DNA from: a virus
Lineage: Duplodnaviria; Caudoviricetes
IMG/VR virus record: IMGVR_UViG_3300028805_000043
Length of the DNA: 64,000 nucleotides
Strand: one strand, 5' to 3'
Shown here piece by piece: positions 1 to 63,158 of the stretch. Under the pieces are notes generated by a model that was not told where the DNA came from, made no database searches, and was given only the letters and a program-made list of their open reading frames with translations. Numbering within the stretch: position 1 is the first letter of the stretch; every line of letters starts with the position of its first letter. The position numbers and the translations under genes are program-made.

Positions 1-399
1 TATATGTCCTTGATTACCACGATAGCCTGTAGTTCCTATGCCACCTTGCTTACCGACTGGACCTTGCACACCAGTTACACCAGCTGTGCCTTGTCCACCT
101 ATGTGACCTTGGTTACCACGATAGCCAGATACGCCTTGGGGACCTTGTACACCACTAAATCCCTGGACACCACTAAATCCCGTCAATCCTTGATGACCTT
201 GTGCACCTTTAAGAAATAATTGTACAATATCTTCTTCAGTATATGTCGTATCAGTAAATTGTGCTCCAGCTGGAATAAATTCTTTATCTCTAACTTTTAA
301 TGATCCATCTTTATTAAATATAATAGCACCTTGACTACCTGTTATTTTTGAAGGATCATCTTCAACATAAATAAATTTTAATTCTTCATTATTAGCCAT
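1..399 (-). CDS. Collagen-like (Gly-X-Y) fibre protein, 5' part; runs off window start
   Basis: Manual translation from ATG at 399: MANNEELKFIYVEDD...KGAQGHQGLTGFSGVQGFSGVQGPQGVSGYRGNQG..., open to position 1; not in ORF track. Confidence 0.85.
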   Translation of the reverse strand, partial: MANNEELKFIYVEDDPSKITGSQGAIIFNKDGSLKVRDKEFIPAGAQFTDTTYTEEDIVQLFLKGAQGHQGLTGFSGVQGFSGVQGPQGVSGYRGNQGHIGGQGTAGVTGVQGPVGKQGGIGTTGYRGNQGHI

Positions 400-10099: not shown

Positions 10100-10140
10100 T
10101 AATTATTTACAAATACAATTATTTATAAATAAAAATAACA

Positions 10141-14476: not shown

Positions 14477-14589
14477 ATATTATATGTAATTCTTATATCT
14501 AAATGTAGTATAATATTAGAAAAATACTGTAAAGTTTCATTTATAATATCATTATAAAGTTTATTTTTATTAAATTATTAAATAAAATT

Positions 14590-15600
14590 ATGAAAAGTTT
14601 TAATAGATATATAAGAGAACAACGTACATTAGATTCTGCTGAACTTGTAATGGAAGGCAAAATTAAGAATATGAGTGATACTGAATGGCTTAATTCTTTA
14701 TATGGTGGATCTGGAAGATATATTCAAGATGTATTTGATAATGTTCAAACACATGCACTTTATGGAATACATAAGGATGAACTTGAAAATTGGAAAGAAA
14801 AATTATCAAAAAATAAAGGTATCAATAGATTTAGAAAGGTAAATGCAAATAGTAAATATTACGTAATTCTTTGTTTCAAATATGATAAATCTAAAGATCA
14901 ATCATATCAAGATGCATTGAATGGTGAAGCTGAACGTGAAAGAAAAGAAGCTGAAAAATTTGCTGATGATGTTAAAAATGCAGATACATCAAAATATTCA
15001 ACTGATGATAAGCATATTAAGAAAATGAAAGATTATTTTAATAAACGTTCAGATCCTGAAAGATTAGTTAAATCTATTAAAGATGATAAGAAATTAGTTG
15101 CACGTTGGATTGCTGCAATGCTTATTGGTTGGCCTGAAGCCGTTTCAGTATTTGGATATGAAATTAAAACTAAGAAACTTTTATCAGAAGCAGAAATTGT
15201 AGCATACACAGAAAAGTATAAAGATCAAAAAGTAGATGATTCTGATATGAATAGATTAGATAAAGAAACAAAGAAAATAGCAGAAAGTTGGATTACAAAA
15301 TCTTTATATAAATATTTTGAATCATTAAAAGACTATACTATTGAATGGAAAGAATCATTTAAGAATGCAAAAACTCAAGCCGGTAAAGAAGCTATGAGAA
15401 GAACAGGTAGAGCTTGGACAGAAGGATTTGTTGTAACTGTTACTAAAGGTGAAAAATCTATAGATGTAACATTCGATGTAGTAACTAATGAAGGTGGTGG
15501 TCTTTATGGTTATGTATTATCTGGATTTGACTATAAAGTTATTAACCTAAAAACATTTAAGGAAAACTTTGAAAATTTGATAAAAGATAAATTAAAATAA
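14590..15600 (+). CDS. Hypothetical protein with capsid-targeting-like leader (MKSFNRYIRE)
   Basis: 336-aa ORF; TTATTTTTA motif at 14561; leader resembles T4 IPIII MKTYQEFIAE. Confidence 0.7.
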   Translation: MKSFNRYIREQRTLDSAELVMEGKIKNMSDTEWLNSLYGGSGRYIQDVFDNVQTHALYGIHKDELENWKEKLSKNKGINRFRKVNANSKYYVILCFKYDKSKDQSYQDALNGEAERERKEAEKFADDVKNADTSKYSTDDKHIKKMKDYFNKRSDPERLVKSIKDDKKLVARWIAAMLIGWPEAVSVFGYEIKTKKLLSEAEIVAYTEKYKDQKVDDSDMNRLDKETKKIAESWITKSLYKYFESLKDYTIEWKESFKNAKTQAGKEAMRRTGRAWTEGFVVTVTKGEKSIDVTFDVVTNEGGGLYGYVLSGFDYKVINLKTFKENFENLIKDKLK

Positions 15601-21583: not shown

Positions 21584-21781
21584 TTATTTTTCAATATTTT
21601 TACGAGGTTCTTTCTTATAGAATGCGTTATTACTTGCAACTTCTTTATTTAATTTATCAACCTCAGCTTTAGCTTCATCTTCTTTGTAGTAAAAATTTTG
21701 CATTGTCTTATCTCCAAAATAAACTACATATACATCATCAGAAGATTCAGCTTCTGTAATAAATTCTTGTAATGATTTCAT
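21584..21781 (-). CDS. Putative internal head protein (leader MKSLQEFITE)
   Basis: Closest match here to T4 CTS MKTYQEFIAE. Confidence 0.65.
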   Translation of the reverse strand: MKSLQEFITEAESSDDVYVVYFGDKTMQNFYYKEDEAKAEVDKLNKEVASNNAFYKKEPRKNIEK

Positions 21782-21801
21782 TATATCGTTCTATATATTT
21801 A

Positions 21802-22161
21802 TCATTTATTTACAACTATCAACATTGTTTCTCCTTTTTCTAATAATTCAAGAAGTTCTTCATATGTGTATTCTTCTTCATTATCATCATATTCAATAAA
21901 ATCACCATTAGGTCTCCATGTATTAAGTTTAAATTCTTTATCCATGTCAACAACCCATGTTGATTTATTCTTTAATGTTGCAAGGAAGAATCCTTTGTCT
22001 ATCCAATATTTGCCAACATGCTCATATTGTTTTGATATTTTATCTAATGATTCTTTATCATAACAATAATAAACAACATCAACTTTTTTATTTGTTTTAA
22101 TGTCTTTTACTGTTATTTCATCAATAGTTCTACCTTCTAAAAATACTTTAAGGTCTTTCAT
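21802..22161 (-). CDS. Putative internal head protein (leader MKDLKVFLE)
   Basis: CTS-like leader; in cluster. Confidence 0.6.
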   Translation of the reverse strand: MKDLKVFLEGRTIDEITVKDIKTNKKVDVVYYCYDKESLDKISKQYEHVGKYWIDKGFFLATLKNKSTWVVDMDKEFKLNTWRPNGDFIEYDDNEEEYTYEELLELLEKGETMLIVVNK

Positions 22162-22163
22162 TA

Positions 22164-22391
22164 TTATTTTTCATTTAATGCGCTCAAATCAGTTATACAA
22201 AGATAAATTATATTATCTTCTCTCAATGATTCACCTAATTTAAGTTTTTTAACTTTTTCATCTTTAACTTCTTTAACCGCAAGATATTCAATTGAATCTG
22301 CACCAATATCAACTTTTAAGAAATCTGCCCATGGTTCAATTGTAACCATAGTGTCATCTTTACGTTCTAAAATTGTTTTTAAATCTTTCAT
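22164..22391 (-). CDS. Putative internal head protein (leader MKDLKTILE)
   Basis: CTS-like leader; in cluster. Confidence 0.55.
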   Translation of the reverse strand: MKDLKTILERKDDTMVTIEPWADFLKVDIGADSIEYLAVKEVKDEKVKKLKLGESLREDNIIYLCITDLSALNEK

Positions 22392-23539
22392 TATAATAAA
22401 TTTTCTTTATTTTTATCGTCTTTTTTATTAGACTTTTTATCGTCTTTATTATTTTCATCACTATTTTGGTCATCTTGATTTTGGTCATCTTGATTTTGAT
22501 CATCTTGATTTTGATCTTCATCATCATTTAATTTTTGACCCTTGAATGTAAAGATATCAGGTTCATTAGTTTTTTCTGCCCCTAATATTTTCAATATATT
22601 ATCAATAAGTGTTTGTACTTCTTTTGGTAATTCAACTATTGAATCTTTAGAAAAATCTTGTACCCAAATCTTTTTGTCTTCACCCGTAAATATATGTATT
22701 AATGAACGTGTATTTTCTGTTGAATTTCCTGTTGGTAATTTTTTAGTATATTTCCAACGTAAAGCAATAGCTTCATCTTCATTTTTAAACTTAATAGCTG
22801 CAAAATAATAATCACGAGGCAATGACATCTTTTGTGATATAATTATTTCTAATTGTTTTGCTGCTTTAACTTTATCTTCATTATTTAAAATTTCTGAAAT
22901 TTTATCGTCATTGTCACCTGATGGTTCTGAAGAATTATTATCTTTGTTTTGGTCATCTTTATTTTGATCATCTTTATTTTGATCATTTAAATCATCTTGA
23001 TGTTGATCATCTTGTTTCTGTTGATCATCACCTTCAATTATTCTATTAAATTCAAATTCATCGTATAAAGATTCTTTCATTTCTTTAGGACATGGACAAC
23101 ATTCACCTCCTTGTTCACCAGTGCTGACATATGATTTAGCATCAGGCTCCATGTTAACTGGATTCTTCGCTGCTTTAATATCTTCAGGTGAAAAATAAAC
23201 AACAAAACAACCACCAAGATTAATTGAAGTTACCTTTGTTAATCCTTGGGCTGTTATATAACCTTGTAATGAACTAGTTCCATAAGTAAATACATCATTA
23301 TAAAGTGATCTCCATAATAATTCATTAATCTTTTCTTGTGATATAAATTCAGAGCTAGTTAATTTAATAGAGAATCCATCTTCACCAATTGTTGCAACAA
23401 TACCTAAAGGTAAACAAAATAAATTTTTAATATTTGTTAAAATGTTTTGAACTGGTGTATAATGATTAGTTACTCCTAAGTTAGTTTGCTCATTATTATT
23501 TAATGCTTCTTTTAATATACATTCAGAAAAACGTTTCAT
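22391..23539 (-). CDS. Putative head/core protein with DDQN(Q/K) repeats (leader MKRFSECILKE)
   Basis: 382 aa; two tracts of 15-nt repeats; TTATTTTTA motif at 23562-23570. Confidence 0.65.
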   Translation of the reverse strand: MKRFSECILKEALNNNEQTNLGVTNHYTPVQNILTNIKNLFCLPLGIVATIGEDGFSIKLTSSEFISQEKINELLWRSLYNDVFTYGTSSLQGYITAQGLTKVTSINLGGCFVVYFSPEDIKAAKNPVNMEPDAKSYVSTGEQGGECCPCPKEMKESLYDEFEFNRIIEGDDQQKQDDQHQDDLNDQNKDDQNKDDQNKDNNSSEPSGDNDDKISEILNNEDKVKAAKQLEIIISQKMSLPRDYYFAAIKFKNEDEAIALRWKYTKKLPTGNSTENTRSLIHIFTGEDKKIWVQDFSKDSIVELPKEVQTLIDNILKILGAEKTNEPDIFTFKGQKLNDDEDQNQDDQNQDDQNQDDQNSDENNKDDKKSNKKDDKNKENLL

Positions 23540-23580
23540 TATTAATTTATATATAGTTATTTAAAAATAAATTATGTTTC

Positions 23581-24429
23581 TTAATTTTTTATATCTTTTA
23601 ATAAATCATCTACATTAAAGTTAAATGCCATATAAAACTTTTTTACTGCTCTTTTCCATTTTTTAGTATCTGATTGTTTAAGAGCATTAAAAAATTCATC
23701 AGTTTCAATATCATTATCATTTATAGCTCCCACATATCCTGCTAAATATTTAAGTATATCTTTACTATTAATATCGTATTTCTTTTTAAATTGAAATATT
23801 TTTGTTTTAATAGTTGGATCATATTCAACGTTACTTGTTAAATATTCTCTTCGTCTATCTTCTTTTGATGAATTTGGGTCGTCTCTTATAACACGAGACT
23901 TATGTATTTGATTTTTATTTAACCATTTTAATGCACCATGTTGTACTGCATGTGAAGATTCGTGCCAAATTGAATATTTAAGTTTTTCAATAATATCCTT
24001 AATATTATCTATATTACATCCATTATTTACTTCTTCAATAAATTTTAATGGATTAATAGTAAAACAATCTATACACCCGTGTTCATTTGATTCTTCAAAG
24101 CTTGCATTTACTGTTGGTCTTTCACCCCAAATTTTTCCTTCCCAATCAATAATAAGTTTTAATTGTCCAATTTGAAACTTCCAATTATTTCTTATTTTTT
24201 CTGGCAGATCATCTAAAATATAATTTAAATCTATTTTTTTATTTTGAGGTTTAAAATTTTTTATTATTTCAATTTTATTGTTTCCTATAATTTCTTTTGC
24301 TTCCTTTTCATACCCCTTTGAATATATATAAGAAACATATTCTTCAAGCACATGATTAAATAAACATTGTAATAAAGACTTAGGAACTTTTATTAAATTT
24401 TCATTTATATATAGTGTTAAATCTTTCAT
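23581..24429 (-). CDS. HExxH (zincin-like) protein with CTS-like leader
   Basis: MKDLTLYINE; SIWHESSHAVQ followed by EYLTSNVE. Confidence 0.6.
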   Translation of the reverse strand: MKDLTLYINENLIKVPKSLLQCLFNHVLEEYVSYIYSKGYEKEAKEIIGNNKIEIIKNFKPQNKKIDLNYILDDLPEKIRNNWKFQIGQLKLIIDWEGKIWGERPTVNASFEESNEHGCIDCFTINPLKFIEEVNNGCNIDNIKDIIEKLKYSIWHESSHAVQHGALKWLNKNQIHKSRVIRDDPNSSKEDRRREYLTSNVEYDPTIKTKIFQFKKKYDINSKDILKYLAGYVGAINDNDIETDEFFNALKQSDTKKWKRAVKKFYMAFNFNVDDLLKDIKN

Positions 24430-24431
24430 AA

Positions 24432-25097
24432 TTAAAACTGTCTCCAGAAATGGAATATTTGTTGTAATGTAGCTTTAGAGAAGTGACCTTCTGTATACAT
24501 CGCTGTTGATAATAATCTTGTTGGTAATAACCAAGAAGCTTGTCGTAAAACTGGTATATACATCTTAATACCAAATCCTATCTTAAGATTTGATTTCATT
24601 AAATGCTTAAGTCGTTTATAAGAAATAAAAGTATTTGGTTTACCAGTTACTTCATTAAAGTTTTTATCAAAATATGGCTTAAATACATTATATGTATGAG
24701 TCAATATTCTTGCACGAGCAAAAGGTGGATAATAGTGAAGATTCAAACCAACCTCACGAATATTACCATCATTTGTTCTCGTAATACCTAAGAATAATGT
24801 TAAAGGAGTTCTATCATAATATTCGAGTTCTTCTTTAAATTTAGGTTCAGCATAATGGAATAATACAACTTGTCCAGGAAGCAAATATTTTTTAGTTACT
24901 TTGGTATTATGTATTATTTCTTTATAAGCTAACTTTGATCTTATGTTTGTAGGACGTCTAACTAATGGATGATTATTAATAGCCTCATCCAATTGATATT
25001 CGTTTATTTCTTCAGGATCATAAATTTTTGATGCTAACTCTTTTAGATTTAAAGGACTACCTATTGTTGCCTTTTCAGATTTTTGTATTATTGCCAT
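24432..25097 (-). CDS. T4 gp2-like DNA end protector
   Basis: PGQVVLFHY..PKFKEELEYYDRTPL.LFLG...GLNLHYYPP.AR. Confidence 0.75.
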   Translation of the reverse strand: MAIIQKSEKATIGSPLNLKELASKIYDPEEINEYQLDEAINNHPLVRRPTNIRSKLAYKEIIHNTKVTKKYLLPGQVVLFHYAEPKFKEELEYYDRTPLTLFLGITRTNDGNIREVGLNLHYYPPFARARILTHTYNVFKPYFDKNFNEVTGKPNTFISYKRLKHLMKSNLKIGFGIKMYIPVLRQASWLLPTRLLSTAMYTEGHFSKATLQQIFHFWRQF

Positions 25098-25102
25098 TTA
25101 AT

Positions 25103-25570
25103 TTATAAATCATCATTAAAGTATTTTTGTATATAATGAAAAACATCTGGCATAAATTTACGATTACGTTCTTTAGTTTCTTCTGGGCCAACCCATTCAT
25201 ATTTTGAATGTTCTCTTGATATTTTAATTTCAGGAGTTGTTTCTAATTTAATCAACCAATATTCTGTATCTGAACCTATTGATCCATCTTCTTTTTCATG
25301 ACCTTGCTTATCAATAGATTTCATATTTTGTTTTTCATTAAAAGTCAATTCTAAACCTGTTTCTTCTTTAATTTCTCTTATTATTGCTTCTTTTGAATCT
25401 TTATCTTTTTTATCAATTGATCCACCAACAAAACCCCAATGACCACCAAACATTTTCATATAATTAGCACGACGTAATATCAATATCTTATTATCTTCAG
25501 ATACTAATATGCCATCTACATAATGTTTTATCTCATCTTTGTTCTCAAATAAATCTGAGTATCTTTTCAT
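25103..25570 (-). CDS. Nudix hydrolase with CTS-like leader
   Basis: Nudix box GGSIDKKDKDSKEAIIREIKEETGL; ISREHSKYEW; leader MKRYSDLFE. Confidence 0.85.
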   Translation of the reverse strand: MKRYSDLFENKDEIKHYVDGILVSEDNKILILRRANYMKMFGGHWGFVGGSIDKKDKDSKEAIIREIKEETGLELTFNEKQNMKSIDKQGHEKEDGSIGSDTEYWLIKLETTPEIKISREHSKYEWVGPEETKERNRKFMPDVFHYIQKYFNDDL

Positions 25571-25572
25571 TA

Positions 25573-26061
25573 TTAATCTTCAAGTTCTATTTTTAACTTT
25601 TTTAAAATTTTTTGTTTTTCTTCATTTAAATCATTAATTTGATTTTGTAATTCTAATATTTTATCATCTACTTCTTCTAATTGTTTATGATATTTAGAAT
25701 CTAATGCACTAATTACTGCTTCTTTAGAAATGCCAGCAAAATACCAAGTTCCATCACCATGTATACGTTGCATAAAAAATTCTTTCTTACCTTCATTTCG
25801 TTTATCAAATATCAAGAAACCAGTAATTTTAAATGGATTAGATTCTATGCTAACATAAGTAGTATTAATTTTACCTCTAGCAAATAATTCCTCTGGACCT
25901 CTATTTTCAATATTTCTAATTTTTAATTGATAACATTTATGTTTTCCATTATCTGTCCATTTGTCATAATCAGGTGTTATATACAATATTGTACCTTTTT
26001 CTAAATTGGTATATATGTTTTCTAATTTTTCTTCATTTATAAAACTATTAATTGTTTTCAT
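25573..26061 (-). CDS. Putative internal head protein (leader MKTINSFINE)
   Basis: CTS-like leader; C-terminal coiled coil. Confidence 0.6.
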   Translation of the reverse strand: MKTINSFINEEKLENIYTNLEKGTILYITPDYDKWTDNGKHKCYQLKIRNIENRGPEELFARGKINTTYVSIESNPFKITGFLIFDKRNEGKKEFFMQRIHGDGTWYFAGISKEAVISALDSKYHKQLEEVDDKILELQNQINDLNEEKQKILKKLKIELED

Positions 26062-26068
26062 AACGTAA

Positions 26069-26461
26069 TTATATTTTTTTAAGTGATTTTTCTAATTCGT
26101 CATCATTCATTATTTTACCTTTTGTTAACCAATCTGGACATTTTAAGTTAATACTATAATCTTTCCATGTTTCTTTAGGATCTTCATCATTGTCATAAAC
26201 AGTTAACATCATCCATCCTTCATCAGATAAAAAATAATCTTGATATTTATGCTTATTATTAGGATCATTAATAACAATTACTGATTCATCATTTCTCAAT
26301 TGATTTAAATCATTAACTGCATATATAACATTAACTTCAAAATTTCCATATCCTCCATTTAAATAATCTGGTATAGAAATTTTATGTACTCCTTTTTCTT
26401 TAATAGGTGTATGATATTTAGGTCCTGTTGATTCAATTATAAAATCATTTAAATTTTTCAT
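26069..26461 (-). CDS. Putative internal head protein (leader MKNLNDFIIE)
   Basis: CTS-like leader. Confidence 0.6.
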   Translation of the reverse strand: MKNLNDFIIESTGPKYHTPIKEKGVHKISIPDYLNGGYGNFEVNVIYAVNDLNQLRNDESVIVINDPNNKHKYQDYFLSDEGWMMLTVYDNDEDPKETWKDYSINLKCPDWLTKGKIMNDDELEKSLKKI

Positions 26462-26676
26462 ATATTATTAATTTTATTTTTTATTCCTATATGCCATTTT
26501 CCACAGACCTTACATATATATGCAGTATACTTATACATTTTATGTTTTTTAATAAATGATAATGCCTCTTGTTCTGTTTCAAATTTTTGTTTTGGTTTCC
26601 ATTCACCATTTTTTCTGGCATAGTGTTCACGTTTAATTGTATGTTTATTACAATCAGATCTAGTTGTTTGTTTCAA
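26458..26676 (-). CDS. Small basic Zn-finger protein
   Basis: AYICKVCGKWHIG; TTG start. Confidence 0.6.
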   Translation of the reverse strand: MKQTTRSDCNKHTIKREHYARKNGEWKPKQKFETEQEALSFIKKHKMYKYTAYICKVCGKWHIGIKNKINNI

Positions 26677-26677
26677 A

Positions 26678-27421
26678 TTAATTTAATGTATTAATTTCGT
26701 ATGGGAATTTATCAGGTTCACAAGTAACAGTTATTACAAATGAATATACATCATCAGCATTATCAATAGACACATCTAATACTTGTGCCCAATCAATTTC
26801 ATCATGCTTCTCTAATTCTGATAATGTTTTTGCTACTCCAGTTAAAGAAGTTTTAATAGATCCTTCTTTACCATTTGAACCAGTAAACTTAACGAAATAT
26901 AATTGAATCTTATTATCTATTCTTTGTAAGCATATAGGATATTGTAACTTATGTACTTCACAAAGTTCTTTAATAAAATTGTATAGTTTTTCATTGCTGT
27001 TTACGTGATTGAATCCACTTTGTAATTGCTGCATGATCTCAATATTCATCCATTCCTTAAAATATAATGGTTCAATTTCACCAACTTTATTTACATATTT
27101 AAATTGATTAAATTGCTTATTAATATTAAGTATATCAGTAACTTTTACAACTGTTTTTAATCTTTCAACAATTTCATGTTCACTGTAGAAATATACTATT
27201 TGGTTATATGAAGGATTATCTGAACATACACATGATGGCTCACAGCATTTTAGATCACATGAATCACCACAACATCCACAACATTCATTAATTTTATATC
27301 CTTCTAAATTTTCCAATTTTGATTTAGAATCCTCATCTAAATCAACAAGACTAATAATATTTTTATTAATCTCCTTTTTTACTTTGTTTTCATTTAATAA
27401 AACACTTGAAAATGTTTTCAT
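26678..27421 (-). CDS. Hypothetical protein with Cys cluster and CTS-like leader
   Basis: MKTFSSVLLNE; CCGCCGDSCDLKCCEPSCVC. Confidence 0.65.
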   Translation of the reverse strand: MKTFSSVLLNENKVKKEINKNIISLVDLDEDSKSKLENLEGYKINECCGCCGDSCDLKCCEPSCVCSDNPSYNQIVYFYSEHEIVERLKTVVKVTDILNINKQFNQFKYVNKVGEIEPLYFKEWMNIEIMQQLQSGFNHVNSNEKLYNFIKELCEVHKLQYPICLQRIDNKIQLYFVKFTGSNGKEGSIKTSLTGVAKTLSELEKHDEIDWAQVLDVSIDNADDVYSFVITVTCEPDKFPYEINTLN

Positions 27422-27888
27422 ATATGAGATACTATTTTTTTAATAATTATATCAATGTCATTACTATTGAATAAAGGTATCTTGTATTTTTCACACGTAA
27501 GACGGACATTATCATATCTCCAGAAGTTATCAGTACAGAATACGATAAGTTTTCCTGATGTTGCATATAAGCCCATTTCTAATAGTGTAATAGGTGATTT
27601 TGAATTATCTGTAAAAACCATACAAATCAAATCAGCTTTATCTAAATGCTTTTGTTCCCATTTGATTTGTTTTTCCATATCTTCTTTAGTTGGATTAAGA
27701 TCCCAATTAGCACGTCTTGGACTATATATTTCCAATGATAAATCTAATTTAGAAAGCTTATTGATTATCTCCTTTTGCCAATCAATAGAATTACCATTAT
27801 CAATAGTACCTGCTAAAAATATAGATTTTGTTTTTGAAATATTATTAGCAGACTTATTAATTACGTTATCTGGTGTAATTATTATCAT
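27418..27888 (-). CDS. Nucleoside 2-deoxyribosyltransferase-like protein
   Basis: SIFLAGTID..WQ..SPRR..QIKWEQKHLDKAD..SPITLLEMGLYA. Confidence 0.8.
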   Translation of the reverse strand: MIIITPDNVINKSANNISKTKSIFLAGTIDNGNSIDWQKEIINKLSKLDLSLEIYSPRRANWDLNPTKEDMEKQIKWEQKHLDKADLICMVFTDNSKSPITLLEMGLYATSGKLIVFCTDNFWRYDNVRLTCEKYKIPLFNSNDIDIIIKKIVSHI

Positions 27889-27905: not shown

Positions 27906-28373
27906 TTATTCAAAAAATTTCTCTGTTACGATTATGAACTTAGCATTATTCTTGTGAGCAAATTCATTAGCTGCTTTCCATTTATCGCAATTTTTAATCC
28001 ATGATTCTTTAAGCCAAACAGAATCCATTGCAGAAGGCTTAATAGTTTGACTATATGGTTTTACCTCAACAATTATCTTATCACCATTAATTGTTTCTAT
28101 AACATAATCAGGATAATAATCATGTACCTTATCATCTAATCTACATACATATTTAATGTTAATAGGTTCAGATGCCCATTGTTTAATCTTAGGATTATTC
28201 TCACAAAATTGGATAAATTGTAATTCTAAACCTGAACGATAAATAATAGGTTCATTCTTTACAGACCTAAATAACTTATGACAAAATTGTTCAGGAACAT
28301 ATCCTTGGTGATATCTTGAATTCTTTTTAGGTTTATTATTCTTAATTTTATTTTCGTAAATTTTATTGCCCAC
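27906..28373 (-). CDS. T4 gp4-like head completion nuclease (TnsA-like)
   Basis: YHQG..IIYRSGLE..FCENNP.IKQWASEP..Y..YYPDY..VEVKPYSQT..KWKAA..FIIVTEK. Confidence 0.8.
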   Translation of the reverse strand: MGNKIYENKIKNNKPKKNSRYHQGYVPEQFCHKLFRSVKNEPIIYRSGLELQFIQFCENNPKIKQWASEPINIKYVCRLDDKVHDYYPDYVIETINGDKIIVEVKPYSQTIKPSAMDSVWLKESWIKNCDKWKAANEFAHKNNAKFIIVTEKFFE

Positions 28374-28588
28374 TTCTATGATTTATCCTTTTAGTAAAAA
28401 TAAATTTAGTTTTTAATTATTTTTATAAAATGACTATTTTATTTAAATAGGTTTAGCAACTAGATTTTCAAGAGTCAAATGAGTGACCTTTGCTAACAGA
28501 ATGTTAAGTGAAGTTTTGGCTAAGTCGAGTTATTTATATGTGACAGATATATTTAACGAGGCGACAAACTAAAAATAAACTAATAATT

Positions 28589-45678: not shown

Positions 45679-46017
45679 TCAATTTGCCTTAACTAAATTA
45701 TCTGATTCAACTGGTTTTTTAGGATTACCAAATTGATCTATGGCTTTTTGACAAGTGCCATCATCAAGCCATTCATATTCTACTAATTTAGATTGTATCT
45801 TTACTTTACCATGTATAATATTTGGAACCTCATCTAAATCAATTTTTGTTACAATAACTTGACGACCATCTTTTGTCATTACTGGTTTTTCATCATTAAG
45901 CCATTGATCATCAATAGGTTCTCCTTTTTGTTCAAAATATTTCTGTAAAGCTATTTCTTCTTTAATTCTTTCTTCTTTTAATATAAAATCTATGATTGAT
46001 TGCATATCTGTTTGCAT
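45679..46017 (-). CDS. Hypothetical protein (TKDGR motif; CTS-like MQSIIDFILKE)
   Basis: 112-aa ORF. Confidence 0.65.
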   Translation of the reverse strand: MQTDMQSIIDFILKEERIKEEIALQKYFEQKGEPIDDQWLNDEKPVMTKDGRQVIVTKIDLDEVPNIIHGKVKIQSKLVEYEWLDDGTCQKAIDQFGNPKKPVESDNLVKAN

Positions 46018-46241: not shown

Positions 46242-46293
46242 TTTTGATTTTGTAAAAATTATATTTAATAAATTGTTTTATTAAAAATAATTA

Positions 46294-52415: not shown

Positions 52416-52430
52416 TTATTTTTATATATA
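52416..52430 (+). promoter_or_regulatory. Putative late promoter TTATTTTTATATATA
   Basis: Exact 15-mer also at 428-442(-), 33561-33575(-) and 63126-63140(+), each just upstream of a virion-type gene. Confidence 0.55.
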
Positions 52431-63100: not shown

Positions 63101-63158
63101 ATGCATAGAATTTAAATATCTTAAATTATTTTTATATATAACATATTAAAAACGTATT

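Follow-up and report, generated by a model that had tools for sequence, protein, structure and literature searches.

Introduction

In phage T4, the capsid-targeting sequence (CTS) attaches internal proteins to the prohead core and can do the same for foreign proteins, and the protease gp21 cuts propeptides after Glu (PMC5694885; PMC9391042). T-even internal proteins are diverse, have only the CTS in common, and are encoded in hotspots (PMC3012670; PMC12373910); at least ten were recognized by their leader (Repoila et al. 1994, as cited in PMC12373910). All three T4 internal proteins are inhibitors of host restriction enzymes (PMC12373910), with Ip1–3 each blocking a different GmrSD restriction enzyme (Silas et al. 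2025, PMC12373910), and the replacement of ip genes among T-even phages has been read as an arms race with host defenses (PMC12373910). The principle of leader-tagged internal proteins is therefore established in T-even phages and is not new. Here we describe an array of nine genes that open with a leader of this kind, located at positions 21584–27421 of a 64,000-nucleotide stretch of viral DNA (the window). The window covers the initial 64 kb of an IMG/VR virus contig of 199,701 bp (IMGVR_UViG_3300028805_000043, labelled G000).

A first-pass annotation of the window had proposed that the array encodes unrelated proteins with a T4-type leader and serves as a plug-in locus of head-packaged effectors, possibly directed against host defenses. 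Comparison with T4 and with ten relatives makes it likely, in our judgment, that the leader proteins are T4-type capsid-targeted internal proteins trimmed by a prohead protease.

The shared leader and its enrichment

Nine minus-strand open reading frames (ORFs) in series open with a leader of the form M-K-x-(L/I/F/Y)-x-x-(F/Y/I/L/V/C)-(I/L/F)-x(0–1)-E. The series is broken by a gp2-like gene and by a doubtful ORF of 72 amino acids (aa). The genes of this region are listed below in descending coordinates.

27906–28373, minus strand: gp4-like head completion gene without leader, first of the co-oriented run (tblastn to the "head completion protein" of Chryseobacterium phage MA9V-2, 38% identity, E 3e-22; Pfam TnsA-like endonuclease N domain, 2.4e-16)
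27418–27888, minus strand: nucleoside 2-deoxyribosyltransferase-like gene without leader (Pfam PF15891, 4.6e-28)
26678–27421, minus strand: leader gene, 247 aa; the leader has 11 residues and the mature part is Cys-rich
26458–26676, minus strand: 72-aa ORF with a TTG start and a CxxC pair, no leader, between two leader genes; coding status uncertain
26069–26461, minus strand: leader gene, 130 aa, unique cargo
25573–26061, minus strand: leader gene, 162 aa, cargo family common to two relatives
25103–25570, minus strand: leader gene, 155 aa, NUDIX hydrolase of family F13 (Pfam PF00293, 1.5e-15; MutT-type PDB matches, 1e-7)
24432–25097, minus strand: gp2-like DNA end protector without leader (phrog_429, 7.1e-19; 35% identity to T4 gp2 over 109 residues, E 3e-12)
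23581–24429, minus strand: leader gene, 282 aa, with an H-E-x-x-H...H motif, unique cargo (phrog_38692, 3e-10)
22391–23539, minus strand: leader gene, 382 aa; two small alpha/beta domains plus a long acidic linker and tail; directly after gp2 in all relatives
22164–22391, minus strand: leader gene, 75 aa, with a 9-residue leader and unique cargo
21802–22161, minus strand: leader gene, 119 aa, with a 9-residue leader; family found in five loci
21584–21781, minus strand: leader gene, 65 aa, last of the array, kept in all relatives

The gp2-like and gp4-like neighbors of the array are as first described, with the nuance that the leaderless deoxyribosyltransferase-like gene intervenes before the first leader gene. 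All nine N-termini first reported (MKSLQEFITE, MKDLKVFLE, MKDLKTILE, MKRFSECILKE, MKDLTLYINE, MKRYSDLFE, MKTINSFINE, MKNLNDFIIE, and MKTFSSVLLNE) were found at their positions and on the minus strand. The two outlying leaders named with them are also real: MKSFNRYIRE opens the plus-strand gene at 14590–15600, and MQSIIDFILKE begins at 46005, the second ATG of a minus-strand ORF at 45679–46017.

Across the contig, 16 of 290 greedy ORFs match the leader pattern. Mean counts were 0.30 when residues 2–12 were shuffled and 0.36 when N-termini were drawn from the pooled composition, and the largest count in 2,000 trials was 3–4. This comparison with shuffled N-termini, suggested along with the first-pass annotation, indicates strong genome-wide enrichment. 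Only two of 1,038 internal Met sites match, one of them being the true start of the 46005 gene. Among ATGs in any frame with at least 30 open codons after them, 17 of 1,864 match and all are gene starts; 16 of them coincide with the first ATG of called ORFs, and the other is 46005. A leave-array-out test used a position matrix built from the nine array leaders only, with internal Met sites as the null. Thirteen of the 281 other N-termini exceeded the 99.5th percentile of this null (expected, 1.4), and the best scorers that also bear the Glu are at 164762, 71304, 70875, 14590, and 181994. As a control, 80 head-gene loci from other T4-like Bacteroidota-type phages were searched, and the pattern was present in only 5 of 1,249 ORFs. 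The leader pattern therefore occurs far beyond chance.

Besides the nine array genes, the leader-bearing set of the contig consists of a trio at 70875–71845, a gene at 164762–165205, and the three genes below. An ORF at 194020 is a doubtful case.

14590–15600, plus strand: outlying leader gene, 336 aa; marks a second, small variable site farther downstream, where relatives have one or two leader genes
45679–46005, minus strand: outlying leader gene, 108 aa from the second ATG, following a 73-aa gene
181994–182368 (G000): leader gene for a Pol-beta-type nucleotidyltransferase (PF18765, 1.7e-8)

Correspondence with the T4 capsid-targeting sequence

Sequences of ipI, ipII, and ipIII were taken from NC_000866 and scored with the array-only matrix. 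The scores are 17.4 bits for IPII and IPIII and 14.4 bits for IPI, with the null reaching at most 11.7. The value for IPII and IPIII is higher than that of every non-array N-terminus of the contig (maximum, 17.2), and the T4 controls NudE and gp2 score −1.5 and 2.3 bits. At seven of ten positions, the leader of the 65-aa protein is identical to that of IPII and IPIII. All leaders, the nine of the array and the seven others, end in (F/I/L/Y)-x-E, that is, hydrophobic-x-Glu. At the sequence level, the proposal that the leader is a T4-type CTS is borne out by these scores and endings.

A consensus from 120 leader proteins of the lineage reads M-K-(N/S/D)-(L/I)-x-(D/N/E)-(Y/F/I)-I-(N/L/K)-E, followed mostly by S, G, K, A, or N. 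Conserved leader residues are encoded by varied synonymous codons, which indicates that selection acts on the peptide. The T4 targeting peptide has been kept over a very large evolutionary distance, with gp2 being 35% identical over half its length, and its conservation is useful for annotation and for engineered packaging tags.

Leader and cargo as separate modules

Behind the Glu, the mature parts are mutually unrelated (best pairwise BLASTP E, 0.17), in agreement with the initial description. Five metagenomic homologs of the 282-aa protein have 50–54% identity to it. Their leaders differ in length and sequence, and each ends in Glu directly before the first invariant block. Other families have indels and tandem leader duplications at the joint between leader and cargo, which suggests that the joint is a recombination site. 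In relatives, tandem duplication of the leader or of its last residues was seen at L011:6683–7660, L011:9327–9641, and L008:14088–14477.

A profile of the 65-aa family, searched against 1.84 billion representatives, returned 70 clusters, nearly all starting with a leader of like kind. In at least eight longer forms (including P0032, P0035, P0037, P0042, P0056, P0063, and P0069), the domain is C-terminal behind a module of ~80 residues, with hydrophobic-x-Glu at the joint; these look like two-part cargo polyproteins.

Recognizable cargo of the contig consists of the NUDIX hydrolase, the Pol-beta-type nucleotidyltransferase, and the conserved HExxH protein, and in relatives an AAA_5 ATPase and DUF285 repeat proteins also stand behind the leader. 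The NUDIX match to PF00293 has a score of 57.8 bits (cut-off, 21.1), and the R-E-x-x-E-E-x-G core of the Nudix box is present, with the upstream part of the box slightly non-canonical. An orthologous relationship to T4 NudE was considered and rejected, the similarity being only generic (E 0.018). In the 282-aa family, H156, E157, H160, and H164 are invariant in six sequences. Its AlphaFold2 (AF2) model is poor (pLDDT 61) with no PDB match, and its Atlas neighbors are only weakly metalloprotease-like. For the 382-aa protein, AF2 gave the domains a pLDDT of 70–85 and the acidic parts as disordered; a fold search returned only generic ferredoxin-like matches (Z ≤ 6.5), none informative. No homologs of the 382-aa and 336-aa proteins were found in cultured phages, and an Atlas search on cargo function gave no usable lead. 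The 247-aa protein has no Pfam or PHROG match, and its homologs in three relatives have a leader-like start without Glu at position 10. No homology of the cargo to IPI–III or to named anti-defense proteins was found in Pfam, PHROG, or cultured phages.

Conserved frame and variable cargo in relatives

Ten IMG/VR contigs encode gp2 at 60%–71% identity to that of G000. Gene order in these relatives is gp4-like, variable leader genes, the leader NUDIX, gp2, a ~350-aa acidic leader protein, further variable leader genes, the 65-aa leader protein, and a conserved leaderless block. Of 10 non-redundant loci, 7 have the NUDIX gene immediately upstream of gp2, and all have the ~350-aa acidic and 65-aa leader proteins. 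Each 20-kb locus has 6–15 leader genes. Their cargo falls into 40 families across ten loci, with 23 occurring in a single locus, and three members of the window (130, 282, and 75 aa) are unique among the 11 loci compared. In G001, a collinear relative of 236 kb, 29 of 325 ORFs are leader genes, and eight of these are consecutive.

The view of the region as a plug-in locus holds for the syntenic flanks and for the cargo, which is exchanged across the ten relatives. It does not extend to three leader genes that form a conserved backbone: the 65-aa gene, the ~350-aa acidic gene next to gp2, and the NUDIX gene. These backbone proteins may be core or structural.

Homologs of the deoxyribosyltransferase-like gene (family F14) stand among the leader genes of relatives, and a 40-aa ORF occurs there in the region of the 72-aa ORF. 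Runs of six to eight paralogous leader genes with a longer common N-terminus (~16 residues) were seen at L008:4981–7338, L008:10700–14086, and L032 (G001 228088–232245). Those of L008 belong to the same family as the DUF285 repeat protein of a relative. Such runs are local expansions of one cargo family.

Two leader ORFs were also identified in MA9V-2, one flanked by the genes for the head completion protein and gp2, the other between a "capsid assembly protein" gene in the portal position and the protease gene. The N-terminal region of the MA9V-2 major capsid protein contains an F-I-N-E|A junction, as in its two leader ORFs, and the protease and capsid genes adjoin gp2 and the portal-position gene. 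This capsid junction is the best indirect evidence that leader and protease site may go together in the wider clade.

Phage identity

The contig has a GC content of 26%, a CheckV completeness estimate of ~70%, and ends without overlap. No near-identical record was found among GenBank phages. Homologs of the T4 portal, large terminase (TerL), gp2, and gp4 place the phage as a distant T4-like myovirus. By gp2, the nearest cultured phages (25%–34% identity) are Chryseobacterium phages MA9V-1 and MA9V-2, Tenacibaculum phages PTm1, PTm5, and pT24, and Sphingomonas phage PAU. The probable host is a member of the rumen Bacteroidota. Shine-Dalgarno sequences are absent from gene starts throughout the window and upstream stretches are A/T-rich, consistent with a Bacteroidota host. 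The contig opens within a repeat (window 1–220) whose minus strand reads as Gly-x-y collagen-like triplets, probably a fiber gene cut by the contig end. Other genes located on the contig are as follows.

76392–78158 (G000): portal gene, T4-like homolog
79791–81749 (G000): TerL gene
180935–181987 (G000): UvsX gene

Expression context

All genes from the gp4-like to the 65-aa gene are co-oriented with spacers of 2–41 nt, and no terminator-like site was found in the run. The array had been described as lying behind the motif TTATTTTTA, and a copy is indeed present 22 nt upstream of the gp4-like start. The motif is not over-represented in number (16 copies in the window vs 14.5 expected); numerical enrichment was rejected on this count, and only the placement is non-random. 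Across the contig, 33 of 62 copies are intergenic, with intergenic DNA making up 12% of the sequence, and 20 copies lie in sense within 100 nt upstream of a gene. Copies upstream of genes include the following.

28395–28403, minus strand: 22 nt upstream of the gp4-like start, heading the run
23562–23570, minus strand: 22 nt upstream of the 382-aa gene, within the array's one sizeable spacer
14561–14569: 20 nt upstream of the 336-aa leader gene
46282–46290: preceding the 73-aa gene that stands before the 108-aa leader gene
10130–10138, 52416–52424, and 63126–63134 (window), and 76375, 109463, 119918, and 164729 (G000): other copies upstream of genes

The copy at 28395 is outside the 20 because the gene list used did not contain the gp4-like ORF. 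In sense and 8–74 nt upstream, the motif precedes the portal gene, genes for 2,461-aa and 1,480-aa proteins, and the leader genes at 14590, 23539, and 164762. It also heads the transcription units containing the 46005 gene and the trio at 70875–71845. TTATTTTTA(TATATAA) is found ahead of the array run and of four further leader transcription units, as well as ahead of the portal gene and of large genes of virion type; an extended form that is often seen is TTATTTTTATATATAA. We infer that TTATTTTTA is a candidate late-type promoter of the lineage. A sigma-70 promoter scan was uninformative in such AT-rich DNA.

Interpretation of the array

The presence of nine leader genes in one fast-changing array suggests that their products are probably packed in the virion and delivered with the DNA. 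Under this model, the leader genes would be expressed together with the head genes, and the leader would dock each protein onto the prohead scaffolding core. The prohead protease would then remove the leader after its terminal Glu, at hydrophobic-x-Glu, and the mature proteins would be retained in the filled head and pass into the host along with the DNA. The region around the gp2-like gene would be the main insertion site, with the three-protein backbone constant and the remainder varying between phages.

Several observations weigh against capsid targeting and delivery. The counting pattern was written from the observed leaders, a circularity mitigated by the array-only matrix and the T4 scores. 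The leader gene for the nucleotidyltransferase directly follows uvsX, which is not a virion gene. Mature cargos are mostly acidic, with a median pI of 4.9; the T4 proteins IPII and IPIII are basic. In T4, acidic proteins of the prohead core are degraded and leave the head, and some acidic leader proteins may therefore not be delivered. Finally, no full-length gp21-type (Peptidase S77) protease or T4-type major capsid gene was found in four contigs of the lineage (G000–G003; 157–236 kb, all incomplete at 55%–83%), so that the enzyme proposed to cut the leader is assumed.

Pfam S77 and Gp23 searches of G000 and three relatives gave no full-length protease and no capsid gene, the Gp23 model being uninformative because it matched nothing anywhere. 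Protease and capsid proteins of PTm1 and MA9V-2 gave no tblastn match in G000 and G001, and a capsid-protein profile gave none in G000–G003. PHROG scans of ~30 large ORFs revealed no protease or capsid gene, and PDB sequence searches of three capsid-sized ORFs were negative. None of 80 IMG/VR capsid loci overlaps the lineage, and the one from the same sample (L117) is a different phage. A protein look-up past the contig ends found nothing, and no paper on virion proteomics of the cultured relatives was found in the open literature. The only trace of a protease is a 143-aa ORF in G002 (L017:1402–1833, minus strand) that matches the N-terminal half of Peptidase_S77 with 33.5 bits. It stands among small early-type genes, away from head genes, and may be a truncated prohead protease paralog. 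Between them, G000 and G001 cover ~273 kb out of an estimated total of 285 kb, and the protease and capsid genes are therefore probably in the unassembled remainder. Their absence from four contigs reflects either a systematic assembly break at this place or strong divergence of the genes.

An unlikely alternative accepts that the leader targets the prohead and holds that most of its bearers are parts of the assembly core or scaffold, degraded or expelled like T4 gp22, gp67, and gp68, and not injected effectors. The backbone fits this explanation, with three array members conserved in all or most relatives, as do the long disordered acidic stretches of the 382-aa protein, which are scaffold-like, and the acidity of most mature parts; T4 core proteins are also cut by gp21 (PMC5694885). 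However, the confinement of more than half of the families (23 of 40) to a single locus is the behavior of accessory genes and unlike that of assembly parts, and folded enzymes such as the NUDIX hydrolase, the Pol-beta nucleotidyltransferase, and the AAA ATPase are unlikely scaffolds.

It is far less probable that the shared peptide is a tag for a non-capsid machine, either a radical-SAM enzyme of the kind that modifies ribosomally synthesized and post-translationally modified peptides (RiPPs) or a secretion or sorting system. No radical-SAM domain was found in the contig, and the control search was positive in 14 of 14 genomes. For a Sec or lipoprotein signal, the leader is not long enough and too polar; true lipoprotein-type signals are present elsewhere in the genome, on other genes. 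A tag of this kind is also at odds with a leader that is near-identical to the experimentally defined T4 CTS and linked to head genes. Least credible is a peptide without a role of its own, produced by a common translation-initiation region or by recombination joints copied between neighbors: many genes of this AT-rich genome start with Met-Lys and the leader duplications do show recombination at the joint, but synonymous codons vary at the conserved positions, the hydrophobic positions 4, 7, and 8 and Glu 10 are kept across the 70 distant clusters of the 65-aa family, and the pattern is nearly absent from the 80 other head-gene loci.

Capsid targeting of internal proteins thus remains our preferred explanation, and a broader version of it can be put forward tentatively. 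In this scenario, which we regard as possible but rather doubtful, the lineage would have turned the T4 CTS into a general delivery system, with the products of 5%–9% of its genes preloaded in the head and injected as first-minute effectors. These would include enzymes (NUDIX, Pol-beta nucleotidyltransferase, HExxH, and AAA ATPase) and small acidic proteins, possibly DNA mimics, and the NUDIX hydrolase might destroy a nucleotide-based host alarm or cap before phage expression. Injected proteins arrive with the DNA and are active ahead of all phage gene expression. At least 16 candidate injected proteins in one uncultured rumen phage and ~40 cargo families over ten relatives make up a candidate list for counter-defense in gut and rumen Bacteroidota phages, for which few such proteins are known. 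If the general-delivery scenario were true, the leader would be a sequence handle for mining injected anti-defense proteins from uncultured Bacteroidota phages.

Comparison with known systems

The closest parallel is the T4 set of IPI, IPII, and IPIII, together with Alt. Here, as in T4, a ten-residue leader of like pattern precedes unrelated mature parts, and the genes are near 4 and 2 on the same strand. The T4 order on one strand (NC_000866, 62000–78000) is 4, 2, 3, 1, 57A, 57B, and ipI. In this order ipI lies ~2 kb past genes 4 and 2, so the hotspot may occupy an ancestral position. Elsewhere in T4, nudE adjoins e, ipIII, and ipII.

Numbers differ between the two systems. T4 has three internal proteins, whereas at least 16 leader genes were identified on the ~70%-complete G000 and 29 on G001, five to ten times the T4 set. 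The cargo differs as well: it includes NUDIX, Pol-beta nucleotidyltransferase, and HExxH proteins, is mostly acidic, and has no member homologous to IPI–III. T4 Alt is a precedent for enzyme cargo.

Hyperplastic ip loci of T-even phages are likewise a hotspot where genes that share only a packaging leader replace one another (PMC12373910), but each holds one to a few ip genes, compared with 6–15 leader genes per locus here. The known targets of the T-even proteins are GmrSD-type restriction enzymes of glucosyl-hydroxymethylcytosine DNA (PMC12373910). In the giant phages phiKZ, 201phi2-1, and SPN3US, many head-internal proteins are cut after Glu by a gp21-like protease and delivered to the host (PMC5694885). 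Their propeptides are long (often >100 residues), with an A/S-x-E motif and no short common leader, whereas the leader described here is of the short T4 type. The present system contributes a distant, probably Bacteroidota-infecting rumen lineage with the T4 leader almost unchanged, a larger set per genome, enzyme cargo, and a comparative picture of a conserved backbone with exchangeable members.

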